Below are positions 837-10,134 of a DNA stretch of 10,134 nucleotides, one piece after another. The notes under the pieces were generated by a model. It ran no database searches. It was not told where the DNA came from and was given only the letters and a program-made list of their open reading frames with translations. Origin of the DNA: a virus. Position numbers and translations under genes: made by a program. The stretch lies in UHGV virus genome UHGV-1424210, one strand, 5' to 3'. The first letter of the stretch is position 1; the number at the start of each line of letters is the position of its first letter.

Positions 837-2075
837 TCAAGAATTTTGGGGGTAAATTCGCGGGGTCATAACAACGATTTTTTCATCATTGTTCTGGAGA
901 AGCTCGAGACGGTCTACCCATAGATTAAGAGCATCACGTTTTGCATCAAGGTAGCGGGAGTGGTTATAGACTCGTTGCATCCCTGGCATCTGGTGGGCTG
1001 TAAGCTGCTCGACAATATGCGGATCCACGCCTAAATCGTTCAGCATGGTTGTAAATGTGTGCCGGATATCGTGTAACGTCCAGGGGGCTTGATTAATTCG
1101 TCTGTGCGCTGTTCTTCCGTACTCTGCTACCGAAGATTGTCCTTTCAGTTCACCAAGCAATAAGCCTGTGTGTCTGTTCTGCTCCACCAGTTGCGTGACG
1201 AACGGCAAAATGCTTTCCGGTATTGGCCTGAATATGGCGACCTTCGTTTTGCTGTGCTCCTTCGGTACTGTCCAGAGCATTTCTTTAAAATCCCACTCCT
1301 GCACCTCAGAGCGCCTTAGCTCAGTGGTACGGCATCCAAAAACAATCAGGAGGCGAATTAGGGCGCTGTAGTATGGCGGGAATATTTTGTCATCCAGGGC
1401 GCGGAGTAATTCCCCAAGCTCCTTATTTGTTAGTACGCGCTCGCTCACTTCTGCTTTTTTTCCCACATCACCGACAACCATATCATCAAGAACGTTGCTG
1501 ATTGCGTATCGTCGTTTTCGGCAGTACTTAAGCGCCTGTTTGCATACCTGTAGCAAAAATCCGGCAGATACAGGGCTTCGCTTTGCCATCTGGTCAAAAC
1601 ATGCCAACCAGTGCCGTAGCTCGCATTTTTCCAACGGCAAAGCGCCAATCTGGCTGATTATGTGTTTATTGATCCGGCTTTTCAGTGATTCGTAGTCAGT
1701 GCGCTTTTCCTTTGCATACGATTCAAGCCAGTAAGTGAGCGCTTCCTTAACTGTCACGGGGGCTAACGCATCCTGTACAGCACGATTAAGCTCATAGCGC
1801 GGATTTTTCCCCTCAGCCAGCCAGGCGCGACACTGTGCTGCTTTTTCCCTGGCTGCTTTCAGGCTCAGATCGGGATAATTGCCCAGTCTCAGACGTTCCG
1901 GTGATACCTGCCTACCAGTTCCGGCCCTGTAAGTGAAATACCAGGTTAACAGGCCGCTGGTGGAATGTCTTACGCTAAGATTGCCACCGTCATTAAAAAA
2001 GGCGTTTTTTGTGGTTGGTGATCCGCTTAATTTTCGTAAAAGAGTGTCGCTAAGTCTATGAATTGCGCTGCTCAT
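837..2075 (-). CDS. int: Site-specific tyrosine recombinase (P4-type integrase), 412 aa
   Basis: Full-length ORF starting with ATG at 2075-2073. C-terminal catalytic-domain signatures: conserved Arg in LIVFGCRTTELRR, His-x-x-Arg box WTLHDIRHTFTT, and a C-terminal Tyr region QRVYNHSRYLD. Overall resemblance to P4/CP4-57-type integrases. Confidence 0.9.
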   Translation of the reverse strand: MSSAIHRLSDTLLRKLSGSPTTKNAFFNDGGNLSVRHSTSGLLTWYFTYRAGTGRQVSPERLRLGNYPDLSLKAAREKAAQCRAWLAEGKNPRYELNRAVQDALAPVTVKEALTYWLESYAKEKRTDYESLKSRINKHIISQIGALPLEKCELRHWLACFDQMAKRSPVSAGFLLQVCKQALKYCRKRRYAISNVLDDMVVGDVGKKAEVSERVLTNKELGELLRALDDKIFPPYYSALIRLLIVFGCRTTELRRSEVQEWDFKEMLWTVPKEHSKTKVAIFRPIPESILPFVTQLVEQNRHTGLLLGELKGQSSVAEYGRTAHRRINQAPWTLHDIRHTFTTMLNDLGVDPHIVEQLTAHQMPGMQRVYNHSRYLDAKRDALNLWVDRLELLQNNDEKIVVMTPRIYPQNS

Positions 2076-2098: not shown

Positions 2099-2355
2099 AT
2101 TAACTACACCATTGACTACACCGTGCATCGTACAAGGGCAAACCGTGACGAACAAGAGCGAACAAGGAAAACAAAATTTTCCTTTATAATCATAGCGATG
2201 AATGCACACAAAACACTACCACGAACACCCGCGAACACTAGATGATAAATAACTATCATTTATATCATTTAGTTAATTAGTCTTTATTTTTCATTATGTT
2301 GCAAATAACAAGCCCGTCAAAAACAGTGATATTAACTACACCATTAACTACACCG
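2099..2355. repeat. Pair of 25-bp direct repeats, ATTAACTACACCATT(G/A)ACTACACCG, at 2099-2123 and 2331-2355
   Basis: The two copies differ at one position and are 232 bp apart. Each is itself a tandem duplication of ATT(A/G)ACTACACC. They flank the putative int promoter. Confidence 0.7.
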
Positions 2356-2386
2356 CTTCACGAACAATATCGAACAACCGCGAACA
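2149..2386. repeat. Seven CGAACA hexamers in helically phased (10-bp) groups upstream of int
   Basis: CGAACA at 2149 and 2159; at 2222 and 2232; and at 2361, 2371 and 2381, with exact 10-bp spacing within each group. Candidate integrase arm-type or AlpA/RDF binding sites. Confidence 0.6.
2293..2320 (-). promoter_or_regulatory. Candidate sigma70 promoter directed toward int
   Basis: On the minus strand: -35 TTGACG (reverse complement of 2315-2320), 16-bp spacer, -10 CATAAT (reverse complement of 2293-2298). Predicted leader of about 210 nt to the int ATG at 2075. Lies between the repeat groups. Confidence 0.35.
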
Positions 2387-2642
2387 AAGATCAACACGCT
2401 TTAATCATTATCATTTTCCGGCTATCCGTCATGAAGCTGGTGGATGATCTGCGTGGTGATTTCCACCATTCAGAGCAGGGGCGGTCATCATGACCATGCC
2501 ATAACAAAAACCCCATATTCGTGGTTTTTCTGTGTCGGGGCTATTCTGCTGTTGCCGTGCTGGTGGATATTCTCCGGTATGCGGCTCCCCATATCGGCAT
2601 CAGGCCCACCAGCGTGAAGCGTTTTTCATTTTTCGCGGGTAT

Positions 2643-2702
2643 AAAAAATCGATGGGGCGGGCAGTCCTGAAGACGTCAGGGTACAGAGATTTGACCCGCC
2701 CC
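2643..2702 (-). terminator. Intrinsic terminator (minus strand): compound GC stem followed by U6
   Basis: GGGGCGGG (2654-2661) pairs with CCCGCCCC (2695-2702), enclosing an inner hairpin CCTGA-agacg-TCAGG (2666-2680). On the minus-strand RNA this is followed by AUCGAUUUUUUAU (plus-strand A-run 2643-2648). Confidence 0.5.
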
Positions 2703-2716
2703 TCCCTGTGCATGAG

Positions 2717-2752
2717 CACAATAAGTAACCGAAGGCGGAATTCCGCCCTCGG
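2717..2752 (-). terminator. Intrinsic terminator (minus strand): 10-bp stem around GGCGGAATTCCGCC plus U-rich tail
   Basis: Minus-strand RNA CCGAGGGCGG-AAUU-CCGCCUUCGG (one G-U pair) followed by UUACUUAUUGUG. First terminator reached after the packaging operon. Confidence 0.5.
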
Positions 2753-2784
2753 TACTTACATATGAGAAACGATATTTCTTCCAC

Positions 2785-2925
2785 CGATACCCTTTATTTG
2801 GGTATCGCGAGTAAGCCCCAAAATCTGGGTGTTACTCTTACTACCCAAACTACGGGTAGTTTCCGTAGTTTCATGGTCGAGTTGCAAATCTGCAACTCAC
2901 CCACCAGCCAACGCAATTTTGCGTT
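2785..2925. other. Cluster of four hairpins / inverted repeats in the untranslated region downstream of the packaging genes
   Basis: H1 CGATACCC-tttattt-GGGTATCG (2785-2807); H2 alternative stems ACTACCC/GGGTAGT (2840-2860) or AAACTACGG/CCGTAGTTT (2847-2871); H3 GAGTTGC-aaatct-GCAACTC (2879-2898); H4 AACGCA-attt-TGCGTT (2910-2925). Confidence 0.45.
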
Positions 2926-2943
2926 ATCGGGAATATCAGCAAG

Positions 2944-3324
2944 TTACCGCCGCAGTCGTTCCGGCTTCTTCCACTGGTAAGTACTTTTCGCGCTCTCCCT
3001 CCGTTGTTGAGAACGGCGACGGTATGCCAGCAACTCAAGGACTCTGGTTCGTATGTTGCGCATATCCACGCCGTTAAGCTCAATACCATCACGGCGCATC
3101 ACCTCAGCAACAACACGCGCGTAATTTTCGGCTATCACGCTGTCCGGCTGCGTGGCCTCCTGTTCGCCAGCCTGCTGGCTGATTCCGGTAATACTGCGGA
3201 TTATCCCGAGCGCTTCGGTCTCGGTCATGGTCATGGTCATGGCCTCCATAGTGATGGCGGGTCCTCCTTGTGGGGTGCCCTGCCACGGGGCGGGAGCATC
3301 GCGGAAAAAGGCTAGTTTTTGCAT
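2944..3324 (-). CDS. Hypothetical protein downstream of terS (126 aa from ATG 3324; more likely about 101 aa from ATG 3249)
   Basis: Same strand as the operon. A strong SD, AAGGAGGA, lies 13 nt upstream of the internal ATG at 3249; the ATG at 3324 has no SD. Contains an in-frame (ATGACC)3 repeat encoding MTMTMT. No recognisable family. Confidence 0.45.
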   Translation of the reverse strand: MQKLAFFRDAPAPWQGTPQGGPAITMEAMTMTMTETEALGIIRSITGISQQAGEQEATQPDSVIAENYARVVAEVMRRDGIELNGVDMRNIRTRVLELLAYRRRSQQRRESAKSTYQWKKPERLRR

Positions 3325-3485
3325 TTTTATTCGTCATCACCACCAATGCAATATATTGATATGACTTGATGTTTTATTTTTCGGTGTCGATTTCGATTGT
3401 TTTTTGTTCATCACTGACGCATAACGCCCACCAGCGCAACGCTGAAAGCCAGTCAGTAAACTGGCTTCGGTCATTGTGCACTACG

Positions 3486-4028
3486 TTACTTGTCTTTATC
3501 CGGCTGAAACTTATCAGGCACATTTCCGGTAGTTTCCATCAGATAATCGGACAGCATTCGCGGGATGTTTTCATCAAGTTTTGTGCATGCGTTACAGGCT
3601 CTGACAACTTCTTTTTTCAGGCCATCCAGCATGACGGGGGTCATCTGTGGGAAGCTCCTTTGCATAGTAAGCGGGAGGCTGTCCATGATTGATGAAATCT
3701 GACTCGCCAGTTTTGAAAGCGCGTACATGCAAAACTCTGTATCAATCACGTCACCGCGATCGCGCTCGTTTTTAAGTTCCTGCGCCTCCGCCTGTGCTGT
3801 CAGTAATCTGATCCTGACTCGTAAGAGTTCATCATCATCAATCTCGCCTTTGTCGTTTGTAAGCTGGCTAATTGCATTGTTAACCCTATTGTCTATCACG
3901 CTGGCAACATCATAAAACGCCTCACGGCCTTTACGTTCAACGGGAGTCACTCCCCACTTGTCGAATGCTGTAGCACTTACCCGGCAGCTTTGCGCCATGG
4001 TTTTTTTGTTCATCAGGTGCGATTTCAT
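3486..4028 (-). CDS. Terminase small subunit, lambda Nu1-like
   Basis: Full-length collinear similarity to lambda Nu1 as recalled: RLLTAQAEAQELKNERDRGDVIDTEFCMYALSKLASQISSIMDSLPLTMQRSFP… versus lambda RLTRAQADAQELKNARDSAEVVETAFCTFVLSRIAGEIASILDGLPLSVQRRFP…; C-terminus ENIPRMLSDYLMETTG versus ELIPGLLSEYIEQSG. The ORF-track start at 4031 is TTG; ATG candidates are 4028 and 4013 (MNKK…, matching lambda MEVNKK…). Confidence 0.85.
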   Translation of the reverse strand: MKSHLMNKKTMAQSCRVSATAFDKWGVTPVERKGREAFYDVASVIDNRVNNAISQLTNDKGEIDDDELLRVRIRLLTAQAEAQELKNERDRGDVIDTEFCMYALSKLASQISSIMDSLPLTMQRSFPQMTPVMLDGLKKEVVRACNACTKLDENIPRMLSDYLMETTGNVPDKFQPDKDK

Positions 4029-4129
4029 CAATATCCCAACTTGGTCAAGGTTTCAGGTTGGTGTGTTGGTGTTATCTTTCCCTTTTTATTCATGGAGATA
4101 GAGCAAACAACAAAACCACCACCACCACC

Positions 4130-4215
4130 CTGAAAAAGCTCATAAATAGCGAAAAACCGCAAGGTCGCCGCCCCGTAGCCTACCGGATCGCCGGAAAGGA
4201 CCCGCCAGCCAGAAC
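4130..4215 (-). other. Lambda-type cos site (cosQ/cosN-like); cosN cohesive-end sequence at 4162-4173
   Basis: Minus strand reads GGGCGGCGACCT at 4173-4162, identical to the lambda 12-nt cohesive end as recalled. Both flanks also resemble lambda: CGGGTCCTTTCCGGCGATCCGGTAGGCTACG upstream and TGCGGTTTTTCGCTATTTATGA downstream. About 135 bp upstream of the terS start, as in lambda. Confidence 0.8.
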
Positions 4216-4229
4216 GGGACCTAATTTCA

Positions 4230-4613
4230 TCAACCAATCAACTTATAGCGACCATCCCGTGCATTGCGACGTACACGCTCAATCTTGAGGCATAGCGCCG
4301 CATCTGGCTTTTTTGGGACAGGTACGCGGCAATATTCAGAAGCTCGAGGAATATTGTTTATCCAGTCGATCACTTCACTTAAATACCAGGCCTTACGCCC
4401 TTCCGTAACCTGTACGCGCTCGGGGAACTCTCCGCGAGCCTCAAGGTTTAGCAATGTGCGACGGCTAAGGGTAGTAAGTTCCATCACCTGATTCATATCA
4501 ACAAGGCGTTCACTTAAACGCATTTTGTCAGCAATAGCCTTTAATTCCTCTACTGCTGGATCCGGATACATCATTTCGGCAATTGGCTTAAGGTCATTGT
4601 AATGATTCTGCAT
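4230..4613 (-). CDS. AlpA-family HTH protein with an approximately 45-aa N-terminal extension (127 aa)
   Basis: C-terminal part VMELTTLSRRTLLNLEARGEFPERVQVTEGRKAWYLSEVIDWI matches the AlpA/excisionase-like HTH pattern. ATG at 4613 is preceded by SD AAGGGGGA at 5-nt spacing. Sits between the D-like gene and cos. Confidence 0.75.
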   Translation of the reverse strand: MQNHYNDLKPIAEMMYPDPAVEELKAIADKMRLSERLVDMNQVMELTTLSRRTLLNLEARGEFPERVQVTEGRKAWYLSEVIDWINNIPRASEYCRVPVPKKPDAALCLKIERVRRNARDGRYKLIG

Positions 4614-4624
4614 TGTATCCCCCT

Positions 4625-4966
4625 TTACACACGAGCCAGCGGCTGAACAGAAATACCTGAGCCAACAAACGCGGCAACCTTTGCCGACAGTTCTTTTACA
4701 GACTCAGGCCAGTTCAGAGCATCAACATTTAAAACACCTGTCTTATAAACCTGTGCCTGTGTTTTTTTCGCTGTGTCGATTTGTACAGCGGAAACATAAA
4801 CCGCTTTGCCTGCGCTCGTTCCATCCCATACCACTAGCGCACCAGTTGCATCTTCCTGCATCAGTGGCGTAAACGCAGGTATTACCCCTTTATTGGCTGA
4901 AAATATCCCCAGCGTAGTAACCAGTGCTTCAGTGCCAGACATGAGTTCAGTGTAATGAGTAGCCAT
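4625..4966 (-). CDS. Head decoration protein, lambda gpD-like (113 aa)
   Basis: Similar length to lambda D (110 aa), with shared motifs THY, TPLM, WDGT, KTG, WPE and a C-terminal AF-G-x-IS. SD AAGGGGGAG upstream of the ATG at 4966. Starts 10 bp after the capsid gene stop. Confidence 0.8.
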   Translation of the reverse strand: MATHYTELMSGTEALVTTLGIFSANKGVIPAFTPLMQEDATGALVVWDGTSAGKAVYVSAVQIDTAKKTQAQVYKTGVLNVDALNWPESVKELSAKVAAFVGSGISVQPLARV

Positions 4967-4975
4967 TGCTCCCCC

Positions 4976-6022
4976 TTAGCCAATGCGAACGGTAACAAAA
5001 CGATTGATGCGGGCCGGTATTGGCTGTGGTGCTGAATGTGTCTGCACATATTCAATAGCCGGATCACCAGGCACAATATAGTTTTTCGGTGCAAGTTCGG
5101 CTTTAGTCAGCCCCATCCGGATTAGCTCCGGATCCTGAATACCGCCATAAGCGACAATCCCCTGAAGAGCCGTATTGCCAAGCACCATCAAATCAGGATC
5201 AAGGAAATATTTTTCAGTTCCGTCCTCGTCGGTATAACGCCCGCTGTAAACAACAATCGCAACATCGCCCATATACCCTTTAAAACTCACCGAATCACCA
5301 AGGTCTTTAAGGGCCGTTTCCAGTTCGGAATTAGAACCACGACGAGTATCCAGAGCCTCTTTTATCGCCCTGAATGAACGGTATTTCTTCCATACATTAC
5401 CGCCCATAATGATAATATTAGTGACGCCCTCACTAAATTCTGCGTAGCTCTCAATATCATCATTTGGATCAAAAGCTTCTTTATCCTTACCTGACCACTC
5501 AGCACCGCCAGACTGAGTGATGATATTTTGTGGTTTAATATTCCAGTCCAGCTCATAACGTTCAATACCATCGCCCTCAATGATATTTTTCCCCGTTGTG
5601 ATTGCCTGAACGGCAAGCCATTCAATACGTGCACGAATAGCTTTAGCCTGATTTACAATCGCCTGTTTAACTTTAATATTACGCGCTCCAAAAGCATTGT
5701 ATTGCTCAGGTGATACACCAGCAGGGCGCACAGCTAACTTATTTGGATCAATGCTGCTTTTCGGTTTCATATAGCCAGGGCGAATTGTTTTTGATTCGTA
5801 TCCCTCATCTCGTGAAACTTTACTGCCCACCATAGGAGAGCAAAACGCCGCGATCGGGATATTTGGATCGTCGATCGTATCAAGAATAATGTCTCTCGAT
5901 TCAAACATTACCGAGCGAGTGAAAAACAAACTGGTAAACAACGCATTTAATTTTTTTTGCACATCTTCAGCATTAGCCACCTGCACAAGCTGTGTAGGCG
6001 AATATAAGTCAACCATACTCAT
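4976..6022 (-). CDS. Major capsid protein, lambda gpE-like (about 348 aa)
   Basis: Collinear similarity to lambda gpE as recalled, e.g. NIITQSGGAEWSGKDKEAFDPNDDIESYA and ALDTRRGSNSELETALKDLGDSVSFKGYMGDVAIVVYSGRY versus lambda NITQSGGTEWSKRDKSTYDPTDDIEAYA and KLDTRRGSNSELETAVKDLGKAVSYKGMYGDVAIVVYSGQY. Start set by homology at MSMVDLY (ATG 6022); the alternative ATG at 6016 has better SD spacing. The ORF-track start at 6103 is TTG. Confidence 0.9.
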   Translation of the reverse strand: MSMVDLYSPTQLVQVANAEDVQKKLNALFTSLFFTRSVMFESRDIILDTIDDPNIPIAAFCSPMVGSKVSRDEGYESKTIRPGYMKPKSSIDPNKLAVRPAGVSPEQYNAFGARNIKVKQAIVNQAKAIRARIEWLAVQAITTGKNIIEGDGIERYELDWNIKPQNIITQSGGAEWSGKDKEAFDPNDDIESYAEFSEGVTNIIIMGGNVWKKYRSFRAIKEALDTRRGSNSELETALKDLGDSVSFKGYMGDVAIVVYSGRYTDEDGTEKYFLDPDLMVLGNTALQGIVAYGGIQDPELIRMGLTKAELAPKNYIVPGDPAIEYVQTHSAPQPIPARINRFVTVRIG

Positions 6023-6187
6023 CCTCTTTACATTCATTACAAATAATTGTGAATATATTCTATTACCGATGTCTGCTATGCGAATACATGCAACCAAGTG
6101 CAATGTTGTATAAAATATGCTGTGACAACTTCAGTGCTGATAATTCGTGTTAATGTATTTACTTCCTTTGGTCGGGATTTATGTAGC

Positions 6188-6216
6188 ATGCCGGAAAATC
6201 TATTTTTTTCCGGCAT
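6188..6216. other. 11-bp-stem hairpin between the SSB-like and capsid genes (terminator-like)
   Basis: ATGCCGGAAAA (6188-6198) / TTTTCCGGCAT (6206-6216) with a 7-nt loop. A T-rich tract follows on the plus strand only, so its role in the minus-strand operon is uncertain. Confidence 0.35.
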
Positions 6217-6233
6217 CTTTTTGTTTGCAGAAT

Positions 6234-6656
6234 TTAAAACGGTATATTATCGCCGTACGGATCATCATTCCCCGACTGTTGTTTTGCCCTGTTCAGTGCG
6301 TCAGTGGCCTGCCCCTGCTGGCCTTTTTTGCCGCCCGGTCGCGCTGTTCGCGCACTGATCACGCTGTCTGCGATAACCTGCCAGCCCTGCCGCGTTTCGC
6401 CGTTCTGGCCTGTCCACTGGCTTACCTGCATGTTACCCGCCACGCTCACCAGTTCGCCTTTGTGGTGTTTTGCCAGTGCGTCGGCCTGTCTGCCAAACGC
6501 CAGGACGGATAACCACATCATCGCCGTTCCGTCATCTGCCTGGCTGCACGGAAGGGGGACCGCCATACTAGCCATCGCCATTTGTGTACCCTTGCTGGTG
6601 GTCTTTAACTGCGGGTCAGCCACCAGCCGTCCGTAAGCCGCTATCTGTGCTGTCAT
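6234..6656 (-). CDS. Single-stranded DNA-binding protein (SSB)-like, 140 aa
   Basis: OB-fold-like core WLSVLAFGRQADALAKHHKGELVSVAGNMQVSQWTGQNGETRQGWQVIADSV resembles E. coli SSB [51 protein letters not shown]. Gly/Gln-rich linker and acidic C-terminal tip DDPYGDNIPF (compare SSB DFDDDIPF). SD GGAGAG upstream; the start ATG overlaps the upstream stop (ATGA). Confidence 0.65.
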   Translation of the reverse strand: MTAQIAAYGRLVADPQLKTTSKGTQMAMASMAVPLPCSQADDGTAMMWLSVLAFGRQADALAKHHKGELVSVAGNMQVSQWTGQNGETRQGWQVIADSVISARTARPGGKKGQQGQATDALNRAKQQSGNDDPYGDNIPF

Positions 6657-6895
6657 GCTGTCTGCTCTCCGGTTTTAACGTTGATGGTTGTCACCTGTTC
6701 CGCTTCGGCAATCTCCCGTTCTGTCAGCGTGGCAAAGTTTGCAGCTGCCGTTGTCATGAATGCGCTAATCAGTTCGGGATGTGCTTTCGCATATCCTTCC
6801 CCGGCGTTGCGGTCGATGATTTTTATCGCCACTCTCAGCCAGTGCTCTGTAAGGTCAATAGCGCGGTAGTGTGGTTGTTTGCGGTTTTCCTTCAT
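6653..6895 (-). CDS. Hypothetical protein, 80 aa, translationally coupled to the SSB-like gene
   Basis: ATG-initiated ORF whose stop overlaps the SSB-like start (ATGA). First gene after the iteron region. No recognisable motif. Confidence 0.5.
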   Translation of the reverse strand: MKENRKQPHYRAIDLTEHWLRVAIKIIDRNAGEGYAKAHPELISAFMTTAAANFATLTEREIAEAEQVTTINVKTGEQTA

Positions 6896-6935
6896 AGTTC
6901 AGATCTCAATTTTTCGTATATATATACAAAACAGT

Positions 6936-7250
6936 GCGGGTTATGCGGGTTAGCGGGTTATCTTCGCTTGCTAAGTATTTTTTATTCCTTAATATCAATA
7001 CATTACAAAATTAACTGTTTACTGTTTAGCCGTGGCGTAACCCGCAAAATGCTCAAAATAACCCGCAAACGGGGTTTTTTCTGCGGGTTACGCGTGGCTG
7101 TTTGCTGTCACTTCCTGTTATTCATCTGCGGGTTATAATCGCACTTTTGCGGGTTATAACTGCCGTTTTGCGGGTTACGTGCGGGTTATTGATTTCCTTT
7201 TTATTCATGCAGTTAATGCACTTATACACAGAGTAACCCACATAACCCGC
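6936..7250. repeat. Iteron array (9-bp GCGGGTTAY) flanking an AT-rich stretch: candidate replication origin
   Basis: Direct copies at 6936-6944, 6945-6953, 6954-6962, 7083-7091, 7128-7136, 7149-7157, 7170-7178 and 7181-7189. Inverted copies (TAACCCGC) at 7036-7044, 7058-7066 and 7242-7250, plus a degenerate one near 7233-7240. AT-rich region 6962-7030. Immediately downstream of the Rep stop at 7274. Confidence 0.7.
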
Positions 7251-7273
7251 AACTTTTCACCTCACACAGGGGG

Positions 7274-9397
7274 TTAATCTTCTGCCTCAGGCTGGAACAT
7301 CAGCACGTAAAAAACATGCTGCTTCCCCCCAATTTTGCCGAGAGCCTTTTTCTTGTAACGGCGATCGTTACCCGCTTCCAGCATTCCGGCAGCACTCAAC
7401 GCGCGGGCAAAGTGGGACGGGTTAAATCCCTGTGCGATCTCCCCCTCAAACACATGAGGAAACGTGTAAAAACGGAACTCATCATCTTCATTTCTGATAC
7501 TCCCCTTTCTGTATCCGGCAAGGTCTTTAATCGGTAAATCACGTTCATCACTGTTTGGGTAAGGAAGGTATCGACTGAACCCGAACGACGACAAAAACGC
7601 CTCAGCCTGTTCAACCATCTGTTTAAATTCCCTGTTACCCGTGCCGAACTCCTTCACCCAGGCATTAAAGTTATGCTGTATTGCGTCCCGGCATTCCTGC
7701 GCGGCCCAGCCAGTTACATGACCGGAAAGCACAAGCGCGGCCTCCAGTATGGCGAAACGCTCACCCACGCGGTGGACTTGCTCGCCGTAGCTCTCCGGTA
7801 TCAGGTTGCGCCACCGTTCGCGGCATTCCCTTACCGTATCCTTTGCCTCCTGCTGGTGGCCTGCCAGCCATTTAACCCACTCACGACCCGCTGCCCCGTG
7901 ATTTTCTGTCCAGGCATCCTTTAACGCGTCTGCGTGCGCCTTTCCGGTGCTGTATTCGTGAAAGTGCGTGGCTTTTTCCATCGGAACGTTAAGCAGGCGG
8001 ACAAGCTGCCCCGCTTTGACTTTTATCCCCTCCGTTTTGAGGAATGTCTCAACGTCCATTTCTCCGGTGCTGATTGCCACCGTGCGCCAGTGTTTTATCT
8101 CCCGGTTGCCGCCGTCCTTCGCCCCCTGTAATTTCCCGGAACCGTTAAACAACGTATAGGCTGACGTGGACACCTCCCGCGCGTTTCCGGCCTGGCCTAT
8201 TTCATCCAGGGGTAACAGCCCGTCGTTGTGCGCCTCTGCCTCGTTAGCGATACCTAACGCTGTGCCGTACCAGGTCAGCCGTTGTGCGTCCGGCTCTCCC
8301 CATAAACTTGATGCGATGTTCTGCGTGGTGGTTTTCCCTGCCGATGACTGTTCGAAAAGATGTACCCCGAAGCCGTCAGCACCAACAAGGCCAATCAAAG
8401 GTGCTGCCAGTGACGTGGCAACACCCAGCATCATGGACGGATTGCCACCAGCCAGCCGCGCCACGCAGTCGCGCCAGCCCTCCGACGTACCCGCAACCGA
8501 ATAGCCATTAACAGTGGCACTTTTTCCGGTAAACAGGATCGGTTTTTCAGAATCACCAATGATTGAGCCGTCCGGCATGATATACGCGCCAAAATGCCAG
8601 CCCGTTGTTGTGCTTAGCTGCCATTCCTCATGGCTTCCGCTTAACTGCATCCAGTCAGCCAGGATAGCCCTGTATTTGCCGTTTGTTGTCACGTTCAGCC
8701 CGTGATCTTTAAGCAACCGCCAGCCGTCACGGTCGCCAATGCCACCACACGGGATCGCCATTGTGATGACTTCATGGTTTGCTAATTTTTTCCAGCGCAT
8801 CACGCGGTAATGCTCTTTACCGATCGTCCCCGTTCCCAGTAGTTCAAGCGGAGAACATAACCACGTCTCAGGCCGGATAATTTCGCCTGACTGCTTATCC
8901 ACTTTGGGCGTTACCCAGAAAACACCATCGACGCGACTTTCAACGCGGGGCTTTAATTCATCATCCTGATAGCATGGCTCTTTTTTCTTTACAGGCAGTT
9001 CAACTACCTTTTTCTTTTCCGCCTGCTCTGCCCGTTCACGTTCCAGATATTCGCGCCAGTTCTCCCGTTTCTGGCTGTGCATTCCTTCAGGGTAATAATC
9101 AGCATCCCTGACACCTGCCGCTGCCAGTTTCTGCCCGATGGTATTAACAAGCCCCGGACGCAATAACCCCGCCTGGTAGAGACGCACGCGATAGCGTCCG
9201 TCCGGTACGATTTGCAGGTTGTCCAGTTCGGCAAGTTGTTGCTCTCCAAGCCAGACAGGTGGCACGTTATCGCCAGCCAGTCGCCCGTCCTGTTCCTGCC
9301 ACTGCTTCGCATGTGCCCACGCATCACTACCCGCAAAAATGATGACTTCCGTCATTTTGTCACGCGGCTGGTGTTTTAAATTTGGCGCTTTTTTCAT
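7274..9397 (-). CDS. Replication initiator (primase/helicase-like ATPase; resembles DUF927-type proteins of CP4-57/PICI-like islands), about 707 aa
   Basis: Long ORF with P-loop-like motif FEQSSAGKTT and Walker-B-like LLPLDEIG. Adjacent iteron origin. Start set at ATG 9397 (SD GGAGAGAG, ATGA overlap with the upstream ORF stop); the ORF-track start at 9412 is GTG. Family assignment is from memory, not from a search. Confidence 0.8.
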   Translation of the reverse strand: MKKAPNLKHQPRDKMTEVIIFAGSDAWAHAKQWQEQDGRLAGDNVPPVWLGEQQLAELDNLQIVPDGRYRVRLYQAGLLRPGLVNTIGQKLAAAGVRDADYYPEGMHSQKRENWREYLERERAEQAEKKKVVELPVKKKEPCYQDDELKPRVESRVDGVFWVTPKVDKQSGEIIRPETWLCSPLELLGTGTIGKEHYRVMRWKKLANHEVITMAIPCGGIGDRDGWRLLKDHGLNVTTNGKYRAILADWMQLSGSHEEWQLSTTTGWHFGAYIMPDGSIIGDSEKPILFTGKSATVNGYSVAGTSEGWRDCVARLAGGNPSMMLGVATSLAAPLIGLVGADGFGVHLFEQSSAGKTTTQNIASSLWGEPDAQRLTWYGTALGIANEAEAHNDGLLPLDEIGQAGNAREVSTSAYTLFNGSGKLQGAKDGGNREIKHWRTVAISTGEMDVETFLKTEGIKVKAGQLVRLLNVPMEKATHFHEYSTGKAHADALKDAWTENHGAAGREWVKWLAGHQQEAKDTVRECRERWRNLIPESYGEQVHRVGERFAILEAALVLSGHVTGWAAQECRDAIQHNFNAWVKEFGTGNREFKQMVEQAEAFLSSFGFSRYLPYPNSDERDLPIKDLAGYRKGSIRNEDDEFRFYTFPHVFEGEIAQGFNPSHFARALSAAGMLEAGNDRRYKKKALGKIGGKQHVFYVLMFQPEAED

Positions 9398-9693
9398 TTC
9401 TGCTCTCTCCACGCGGCAATCATGTTTTTCAGTTCCTGTAGTTTTTTATCCACATCCACACGTGACACATGGTTATTTCTGGAAGTCGGGATTTCCCGCC
9501 GGAATCTGCAAATAAAGATCTCCACGTTCAGCGAACTAAGAAATGAATAGCCATCACGGATAAAATACACACGGTCAAACATCAGTTCTTTTACCGTTAC
9601 TCTGTTACCGTTCTTATCCAGATAAATAGCGCCGGGGATAATTTGGGGGTGTGCATAACCGCTGGCAGTCAAGCCAGATAAATACGTTCTCAT
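9394..9693 (-). CDS. Hypothetical protein, 99 aa, translationally coupled to rep
   Basis: ATG at 9693 with an upstream GGGGAT; stop overlaps the rep ATG. No recognisable motif. Confidence 0.55.
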   Translation of the reverse strand: MRTYLSGLTASGYAHPQIIPGAIYLDKNGNRVTVKELMFDRVYFIRDGYSFLSSLNVEIFICRFRREIPTSRNNHVSRVDVDKKLQELKNMIAAWREQK

Positions 9694-9699
9694 GATTAT

Positions 9700-10020
9700 T
9701 TATCCCCGATTTGAATCAGTATTCGCTTTCTTTATAGCATTTAATGCATCTGTGGCATTTTCAATGGTGCACCGTAACGAAATATCAAAATGTCCAAGCA
9801 TTGCCAGTAACAAACCGATATTACCCATATCAATGCGCATGGCCTTTTCGTCATAGTCCTCATTTTCTGACGCATGCCACATCAGGCTACCAATTGACGC
9901 AACAGCCATTGATATATTGTCAGTAGCCCCATCCGCAGCGGAATAAACCTTTTTAGCAATATCATGCTCACAGTTAAAATGCGGATTAATCAGGTACTGG
10001 TAATTTGACATATCAGGCAT
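9700..10020 (-). CDS. Hypothetical protein, 106 aa
   Basis: ATG-initiated ORF. Its start overlaps the stop of the upstream partial ORF by 8 nt. Six bp separate its stop from the next start. Confidence 0.55.
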   Translation of the reverse strand: MPDMSNYQYLINPHFNCEHDIAKKVYSAADGATDNISMAVASIGSLMWHASENEDYDEKAMRIDMGNIGLLLAMLGHFDISLRCTIENATDALNAIKKANTDSNRG

Positions 10021-10134
10021 GGCACACCCCCTGACGAATACGGGCAGCGAATACCATCACGCAGCCAGCCGGGGATTGCAGGCGTGCTTCCTGTTCGCTG
10101 GTGGCCTCAATGGTAATCACGCGCGGTTGTGCCG
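10013..10134 (-). CDS. Partial CDS (C-terminal 39 codons) entering from the right edge
   Basis: Open minus-strand frame from the window edge to TGA at 10015-10013 (…VITIEATSEQEARLQSPAGCVMVFAARIRQGVCHA), overlapping the next gene start; indicates an operon of at least four genes. Confidence 0.4.
   Translation of the reverse strand, partial: AQPRVITIEATSEQEARLQSPAGCVMVFAARIRQGVCHA

Follow-up and report, generated by a model that had tools for sequence, protein, structure and literature searches.

The published system against which the present locus is best read is EcCICFT073, a sister island whose cos sites combine a lambda-like cosQ and cosN with no phage cosB (PMC6092414, PMC6739421, PMC9026076). 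Its cos1, once cloned, permits plasmid transfer by both lambda and phi80 (PMC6092414, PMC6739421). The gene that directly follows cos1 encodes RppA (c1503, 144 aa), which associates with the helper TerS in a heterocomplex that retargets packaging to the EcCICFT073 cosB (PMC6739421); Rpps are without the C-terminal TerL-binding region (Murialdo & Feiss 2022, PMC9026076). Neither transfer nor interference requires the island genes c1499 and c1500, and phage-size capsids are used (PMC6092414, PMC6739421). That a satellite can join a lambda cosN to a foreign cosB is therefore already established, having been published for this sister island.

Two further islands, EcCIIHE3034 and EcCI18098, were catalogued in 2018 as 'encoding TerS' (Fillol-Salom 2018, PMC6092414). 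Their transfer after mitomycin C amounted to only 40-110 transductants, and no helper was named (PMC6092414). No description of the cos or cosB of either island was found in the literature searched. The contribution of the present analysis is the anatomy of a TerS-type cosB, its N15-type affinity, and a candidate natural helper with a lambda terminase.

The island and its relation to known satellites

The window, that is, the whole stretch of 10,134 nucleotides that was analysed, represents in circularly permuted form an island of 10.7 kb that E. coli C 237-04 carries between clpS and cspD, where the integrated unit measures 10,724 bp. Positions 1-2263 represent the integrase/attR side and positions 2242-10134 the attL side, and because the two overlap by 22 bp, which constitute the att core, the window carries an attP junction; therefore, the island excises. 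The window derives either from an excised circle or from a tandem copy. None of the other loci retrieved shows the same attP junction; L138, in which both att sites are present, is an integrated copy. Missing from the window are about 596 bp of the island, from the Icd-like/YlcI region (L001 13888-14483). The main features of the island outside the cos region are as follows.

837-2075, minus strand: tyrosine integrase (Pfam Phage_integrase and Arm-DNA-bind_3)
2242-2263, no strand: attP junction, with ATAACTATCAT in its core; reverse-complemented, this is the att ATGATAGTTAT of PMC6092414 Table S1
4230-4613, minus strand: AlpA-family HTH protein of 127 aa (Pfam Phage_AlpA, E 1.4e-8), ending just before cosQ
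4625-4966, minus strand: head decoration protein homolog of the lambda gpD family (Pfam HDPD; 40% to lambda D)
4976-6016, minus strand: major capsid homolog of the lambda gpE family (Pfam Phage_cap_E; 42% to lambda E)
6934-7253, no strand: probable replication origin, with 12 TGCGGGTTAY iterons in both orientations
7274-9397, minus strand: DUF927 primase/replication protein (Pfam DUF927, E 3.7e-47)

All genes lie on the minus strand, namely those for the integrase, a small AlpA-type regulator, an Icd-like protein, DUF4222, the DUF927 primase and SSB, and further the gpE-family capsid protein, the gpD-family decoration protein, a second AlpA, then cos, terS and a 94-aa ORF. The 127-aa AlpA gene is thus the second of its family, the small AlpA-type gene being found near int. 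The gpE-like homolog is 55% identical to c1499 of EcCICFT073. The origin sits between the primase and SSB genes, with an AT-rich palindrome at 6907-6936 beside the iterons; a place downstream of the primase gene is that described for the origins of Gram-negative PICIs (PMC6092414).

The element is a phage-inducible chromosomal island (PICI) of the EcCIIHE3034/EcCI18098 type. Judged by what defines Gram-negative PICIs (Fillol-Salom 2018; island size ~10-15 kb), it has a dedicated att site that prophages do not use, the cspD-clpS intergenic region with the core ATGATAGTTAT, and a gene content of int, AlpA, pri-rep and ori, mostly in one direction and with no lysis or tail genes. For induction, packaging and transfer by a helper, the only signs are indirect, namely the attP junction and the low-level transfer published for the sister islands. 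The att core, the cspD-clpS site and the size (10.5-10.8 kb) agree with those of EcCIIHE3034 and EcCI18098 (PMC6092414 Table S1), and the gene order is the same as well. The cf-PICI head module (TerL, portal, protease, head-tail connectors) was not found, the only homologs of this kind being those of capsid, decoration and TerS. What marks P4-like satellites is a P2-type 19-nt cos and the presence of sid, psu and delta; the cos of the window is lambda-type, and the Pfam/PGAP annotation holds no Sid, Psu or Delta. The earlier note had spoken of a satellite-like element, which holds in that int, AlpA, primase, ori and the E/D homologs make it a PICI, but it had missed the island's own TerS and cosB.

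The lambda-like half of the cos site

The cos region was compared with lambda and with 36 related islands from IMG/VR, which comprise 34 distinct sequences. Its half nearest to the nick has three parts.

4197-4203, minus strand: cosQ heptamer GGGTCCT, -30..-24 from the nick, in sequence and spacing as in lambda; invariant in 36/36 islands
4162-4173, minus strand: cosN GGGCGGCGACCT, predicted 12-nt 5' overhang; present in 27/36 relatives
4130-4161, minus strand: cosN-proximal, I2-equivalent segment, 20/22 then 7/12 to lambda; CGCTATTTATGAGC within it is invariant in the relatives

In lambda the cosQ heptamer occupies 48473-48479. Read on the minus strand, the site runs CGGGTCCTTTCCGGCGATCCGGTAGGCTACG, GGGCGGCGACCT, TGCGGTTTTTCGCTATTTATGAGC and onwards. 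The exact lambda cohesive end that the earlier note had placed at 4173-4162 is indeed there, at 12/12, and is unique: GGGCGGCGACCT is the sole match in the window at one mismatch or fewer, where 0.02 would be expected by chance, so that the window has one cos only. The near-identity claimed for about 30 bp on the cosQ side and about 22 bp on the other is likewise accurate, with 27/32 identities at 4205-4174, before the nick, and 20/22 at 4161-4140; the following 12 positions, 4139-4128, give 7/12. The alignment that had been proposed as a check amounts to 66/78 identities (85%) over the whole segment 4205-4128. Against N15 the same cosQ-cosN-I2 segment gives 55/78. A blastn search of 50,697 phage records (2.3 Gb) matched 101 of them, all lambdoid, with E values from 4e-17 (lambda) to 2e-20, and the lambda match of the cos lies far beyond chance.

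Every one of these alignments ends at about 4128, and in alignments to lambda the window holds no lambda R3, I1, R2 or R1 sequence beyond that point, which bears out the earlier statement that similarity stops where cosB begins. The likeness to lambda and phage 21 ends at about +44, and the annotated I2 of phage 21 occupies +30..+44. With these two phages the island has in common the sequence and spacing of cosQ, cosN and I2, and a terS gene that follows directly. An exact 64-mer of the cos had no match in IMG/VR, of which the window is not a contig. Metagenome contigs with an end precisely at cosN, which would have stood in for virion ends, numbered 0/47.

A candidate cosB with its own boxes

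Between the I2-equivalent segment and terS, the relatives point to two conserved boxes.

4106-4124, minus strand: box 1, TGGTGGTGGTTTTGTTGTT, at +50..+68; candidate R3-equivalent TerS site
4068-4105, minus strand: A/T-rich inter-box spacer, mostly conserved in the relatives
4052-4067, minus strand: box 2, AACACACCAACCTGAA, at +107..+122; candidate R2-equivalent site, inverted with respect to box 1

Across the 34 distinct sequences, box 1 (consensus TGGTGGTGGTTTTGTT..TT, 4124-4106) comprises 16 consecutive invariant columns and 2 more, between variable flanks, while box 2 (consensus AAYACACCAACCTGAA, 4067-4052) comprises 13 consecutive invariant columns and 2 more, with one variable position, Y, that is either C or T. 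The reverse-complement likeness of the boxes extends into a 13-nt inverted repeat (4051-4063 and 4123-4135). The annotated R3 and R2 of phage 21 lie at +50..+65 and +107..+122 (with +1 set at L002 position 167), and because of these matching positions the boxes of the island stand in the exact canonical R3 and R2 registers. As in lambda and phage 21, the candidate boxes in these registers are mutually inverted; the sequences of the R boxes are, however, unrelated, and the window has neither the IHF consensus of I1 nor an R1. The full lambda cosB (R3, I1, R2, R1) is thus replaced by different boxes in the R3 and R2 registers. No IHF consensus occurs between the boxes at one mismatch or fewer, and in the whole window IHF-consensus matches are fewer than chance predicts. 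Since terS begins at +146, where its start codon lies, there is no space for an R1, which in phage 21 is at +150.

A GGTTGTTGTTT(T/A)... motif located 5' of N15-type terS genes, in loci of N15, Escherichia albertii, Trabulsiella, Erwinia, Pseudocitrobacter and Pluralibacter, and at an equal distance from an I2-like CGCTATATATGA, can be aligned with box 1. The Trabulsiella version, GGTTGTTGTTTTGTTGT, agrees with the window's GGTGGTGGTTTTGTTGT at 15/17 positions by hand count on the alignment. Box 1 may accordingly be read as an R3-type site for an N15-type DNA-binding domain, a reading that draws on motif and register. N15 itself, a complete phage, has the GGTTGTTGTTT-type R3 in the same register, but from R3 to gene 1 there is no second, inverted box.

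A triplet repeat, (GGT)4, opens the TerS-type box 1 (window 4116-4129). The proposed Rpp-type R3 of EcCICFT073, ACCACCACC at +55..+63 (L005 ~2613-2625), has this triplet repeat the other way round, and box 2 of the window (ACACCAACC) has the Rpp-type orientation.

The small terminase encoded after cos

The gene that follows the boxes was identified by BLASTP, Pfam and PGAP.

3486-4028, minus strand: terS, a 180-aa small terminase of the Nu1 family with an N15-type DNA-binding domain

PGAP names the product 'terminase small subunit' (WP_000835287.1), and Pfam matches it to Phage_Nu1 (E 9.6e-23). It is 37% identical to lambda Nu1 over residues 6-166 (E 1e-35) and 47.5% identical to N15 gp1; the INPHARED set contains no phage TerS closer to the island protein than gp1, and none above 60% identity. 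The identities are unevenly spread along the chain.

DNA-binding domain (residues 6-50): N15 gp1 27/45, lambda Nu1 17/45, 21-type 13/45
Central part (residues 66-125): N15 gp1 29/60, lambda Nu1 30/60, 21-type 27/60
C-terminus (residues 126-167): N15 gp1 15/42, lambda Nu1 15/42, 21-type 12/42

The island and N15 thus have in common both an N15-like TerS DNA-binding domain and a GGTTGTTGTTT-type R3, and the recognition half of cos would seem to match the island's own small terminase rather than that of lambda. The C-terminus is only 36% identical to lambda Nu1 (15/42), and it retains the LDExIPxxLSxY pattern as lambda and N15 do. A single-sequence AlphaFold model of TerS (pLDDT 58.8, below 50 at the N-terminus) is too poor for use.

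The position of terS right after cos is that of rppA, and an Rpp identity for the gene was considered; it was rejected on a BLASTP E of 1.4 against RppA and on the full-length homology to Nu1. A derivation of the Rpps from a TerS of this kind was rejected too, the Rpp DNA-binding domain being lambda-type and that of TerS N15-type. Quite apart from descent, the island TerS might act as the Rpps do, forming mixed oligomers with the helper Nu1 that read the island cosB, reach gpA via Nu1 and poison the packaging of the helper. This is the main rival to direct recruitment of the large subunit, and an unlikely one. The sister island EcCICFT073 works in this way and needs the helper TerS (PMC6739421), the location of the gene fits, and TerS is most Nu1-like in its central part, at 30/60, compared with its C-terminus. 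What speaks against the mixed oligomer is that TerS has no sequence likeness to RppA or to the Rpp structures in the PDB, a sequence search of which gave no meaningful match, neither to the Nu1 DNA-binding domain nor to RppC; that its DNA-binding domain is of the other type; and that its C-terminal region is complete and Nu1-type, LDExIPxxLSxY pattern included, whereas Rpps lack such a region (PMC9026076). A TerS that recruits TerL by itself is the more probable reading.

Conservation, exchange and spread among related islands

TerS identity among the 36 aligned islands ranges from 84% to 100%. Invariant in all of them are cosQ, the ACG and GGGCG that meet at the start of cosN, CGCTATTTATGAGC, box 1, and box 2 bar its one C/T position, and the bases between and around these features vary. 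In the cohesive end only the first five bases are fixed. The relatives have seven different ends in all, six besides that of lambda, and these alternatives include GGGCGGAAGGCG, GGGCGTCAGGCG, GGGCGGCTGACG and GGGCGGCAGACG; they are found in L009, L017, L019, L035, L051, L057, L059, L064 and L066, all of which still keep cosQ, the boxes and TerS. GGGCGGAAGGCG is identical to the cohesive end of the lambda-like phage PhiR46_1. Because the cohesive ends vary in this manner, the cosQ-cosN half appears to track lambdoid phages while the cosB/TerS half stays constant. Variants of the TerS C-terminus are associated with variants of the cohesive end only in part, with none of the clean covariation that would have linked the two to a single helper TerL.

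This conservation also bears on whether the site is alive at all. A consensus scan calls a weak, terminator-like 5-bp hairpin with a T-run across cosN, and one could imagine that the cos-like sequence is a motif due to chance or resembling a terminator, or that it was left behind by a lambdoid prophage and no longer functions. We regard this as exceedingly improbable, given E-values down to 2e-20, the invariance of cosQ, most of cosN and both boxes at a fixed architectural place in 36 islands, the intact terS adjoining cos, the excision of the element, and a module that is present in 763 of 5426 complete E. coli genomes (~14%). An Rfam search of the window gave no match. Outside E. coli, no close relative of the island was found in a scan of genome contigs (one genome per species), which gave N15-type, phage-like TerS proteins of 30-47% identity.

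The closeness to EcCIIHE3034 extends to its TerS, 87% identical to that of the window, and to the same cosQ, cosN, box 1 and box 2. The two differ just upstream, as the window has its AlpA-like gene before cosQ whereas EcCIIHE3034 has an EcCICFT073-like gene and a terminator. The same replacement of the 127-aa AlpA gene is seen in 15 of the 36 aligned relatives (~40%), and the junction of the swapped gene lies right at cosQ.

EcCICFT073, for its part, agrees with the window in int, AlpA, primase and ori, the gpE/gpD-like genes, a cos followed by a specificity gene, and a lambda-like cosQ/cosN with a foreign cosB. It differs in encoding a 144-aa Rpp with a lambda-type DNA-binding domain where the window encodes a 180-aa Nu1 homolog with an N15-type domain, in having a single proposed R3 where the window has one box at the R3 position and another at that of R2, and in having two cos sites rather than one. 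When EcCIIHE3034 and EcCICFT073 are compared directly (L132 8930-9155 against L005 2490-2670), a single base differs from the upstream gene through cosQ/cosN to about +34, after which the divergence is complete. Because the two diverge at this point, TerS with its cosB and Rpp with its cosB would behave as exchangeable cassettes, and the alignment points to the swapping of cosB and specificity gene together by recombination at the I2/R3 boundary.

One metagenome contig with a TerS-type cosB (L146; CYGL01000727.1, 10,713 bp) has a terminal direct repeat of ~270 nt with a repeat spacing of 10,428-10,429 bp; from this repeat, the related island was assembled as a circle or concatemer.

A candidate natural helper

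E. coli FDAARGOS_1287 (L099, NZ_CP070071, 4100-20800) has a prophage whose portal gene contains an inserted island with a TerS identical to that of the window (WP_000835287.1) and a near-identical cos. The host prophage has a lambda-type cos including the lambda cosB, a lambda Nu1, and a TerL identical to lambda gpA at 638 of 641 residues (99%). Nested island and prophage are thus a candidate natural satellite-helper pair, on the strength of their co-occurrence. Lambda-like prophages harbour other relatives with the same TerS and cos as well, again within late genes (portal, capsid). Helper-embedded PICIs also sit in late prophage genes, as these relatives do; the island of the window is at a chromosomal site, however. 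The type element described for this helper-embedded group, 11capE, is without terS and has 258 bp of cos in common with its helper (PMC10111431).

Cutting of the island cosN by a lambda-type TerL, as the earlier note had predicted, is supported on three counts: cosQ, cosN and their spacing are identical to those of lambda, the homologous EcCICFT073 cos1 works with lambda and phi80 (PMC6092414, PMC6739421), and the same TerS with a near-identical cos is nested in a prophage of the gpA type. For the TerS-encoding subfamily itself, we infer it by extension.

The affinities of TerS and box 1 raise the question of whether the helper could instead be an N15-like (Ravinvirus-type) phage. N15 gp1 is the nearest phage TerS and box 1 resembles the N15-type R3 motif, but the cohesive end of N15, GGGCGGCGTCCG, agrees with that of the window at 10/12 positions, compared with 12/12 for lambda, and the cos segment as a whole stands nearer to lambda by the counts given above. 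Moreover, the prophage in which this TerS and cos lie nested has a lambda-type terminase and head genes, and an alternative end among the relatives is that of the lambda-like PhiR46_1. An N15-like helper is therefore judged very unlikely, and a lambda-like one is assumed in what follows.

A model for packaging

From the observed sequence anatomy, conservation pattern and homologies, and from the natural co-occurrence with a lambda-type terminase, we infer that the island TerS binds the boxes and contacts gpA, and that cutting and the packaging of about four units follow. The cos would on this account be modular: probably, one half is a substrate for a lambdoid gpA, and the other is a private cosB read by the island's own TerS, to which TerL is recruited. 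Most likely, then, the island TerS binds its own cosB and recruits the gpA of a lambdoid helper to cut cosN.

The sequence of events may be pictured as follows. The island would excise and replicate from its own origin to give concatemers, in which the cosQ-cosN-I2 half (4203-4130), common to lambda-like phages, would be the substrate of the helper's gpA-type TerL. The private cosB boxes at +50..+68 and +107..+122 would be read by the winged-helix domain of the N15-like TerS, whose Nu1-like central and C-terminal parts would recruit the helper's TerL. With a private cosB and its own TerS, the island would thereby mark its concatemer for helper packaging without the cosB specificity of the helper. 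gpA would then nick cosN, leaving 12-nt cohesive ends at 4162-4173, and translocate the DNA until a downstream cosQ/cosN is met in a filled head, where cosQ would terminate packaging, at about four units (42.9 kb) per lambda-size head. The packaging range of lambda is ~38-51 kb, and with a unit of 10,724 bp four units fit a lambda head and five do not. Such packaging of multimers parallels that published for EcCICFT073.

The head itself admits of another reading, in which cos is cut as proposed and the DNA enters small, island-size capsids built or remodelled by the island's own gpE/gpD-like proteins. The island's full-length counterparts of lambda E (42%) and D (40%) would lend themselves to this, SaPIbov5 has its head size redirected by capsid homologs and PmCI172 has been seen with small heads (PMC6092414), and a single unit of 10.7 kb is far under the packaging minimum of lambda. 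SaPIbov5 resembles the island in its helper-type cos and its capsid-protein homolog, but belongs to an unrelated, Gram-positive lineage and has no TerS of its own. Small capsids nevertheless strike us as distinctly unlikely, since c1499 and c1500 of EcCICFT073, which are homologous to the gpE/gpD-like genes, are dispensable and phage-size capsids are used there (PMC6092414, PMC6739421), and since four units fit a lambda head; lambda-size heads are preferred.

The contact between TerS and gpA calls for caution. From hybrid-terminase genetics, the small subunits of lambda and phage 21 are known not to cross-react with each other's large subunits. For this reason, and because the TerS C-terminus agrees with lambda Nu1 at only 15/42 positions, TerS need not fit lambda gpA directly. 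Further points that count against the model are the low transfer of the sister islands, the lack of any INPHARED phage TerS above 60% identity, the imperfect covariation of TerS C-termini with cosN, the missing IHF site between the boxes and the absence of metagenome contigs with an end at cosN.

A satellite that provides its own small terminase and recognition site and borrows the large terminase of its helper is familiar from the pac SaPIs, which use headful packaging. The working logic proposed here is the same, although the pac SaPIs are an unrelated Gram-positive lineage and package by headful rather than by cos. It may even be, although here we stop a little short of an even chance, that the TerS-encoding PICIs represent a third route of piracy on cos phages, in which an N15-type TerS and private R3/R2 boxes take gpA directly and independently of Nu1, and in which the cosQ-cosN half is swapped by recombination to match the lineage of the helper.

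Concluding remarks

As a satellite with a lambda-type cos was already established, the finding mainly extends known biology. The anatomy yields precise targets that can be tested, namely the pair of boxes, the TerS and the candidate natural helper with its lambda terminase. The islands also amount to a natural experiment on the separation of cosB specificity from cosN cutting in lambda-like terminases. Phage satellites transport genes for virulence and defence from one E. coli strain to another, and the module described here is found in about 14% of the complete genomes of this species.
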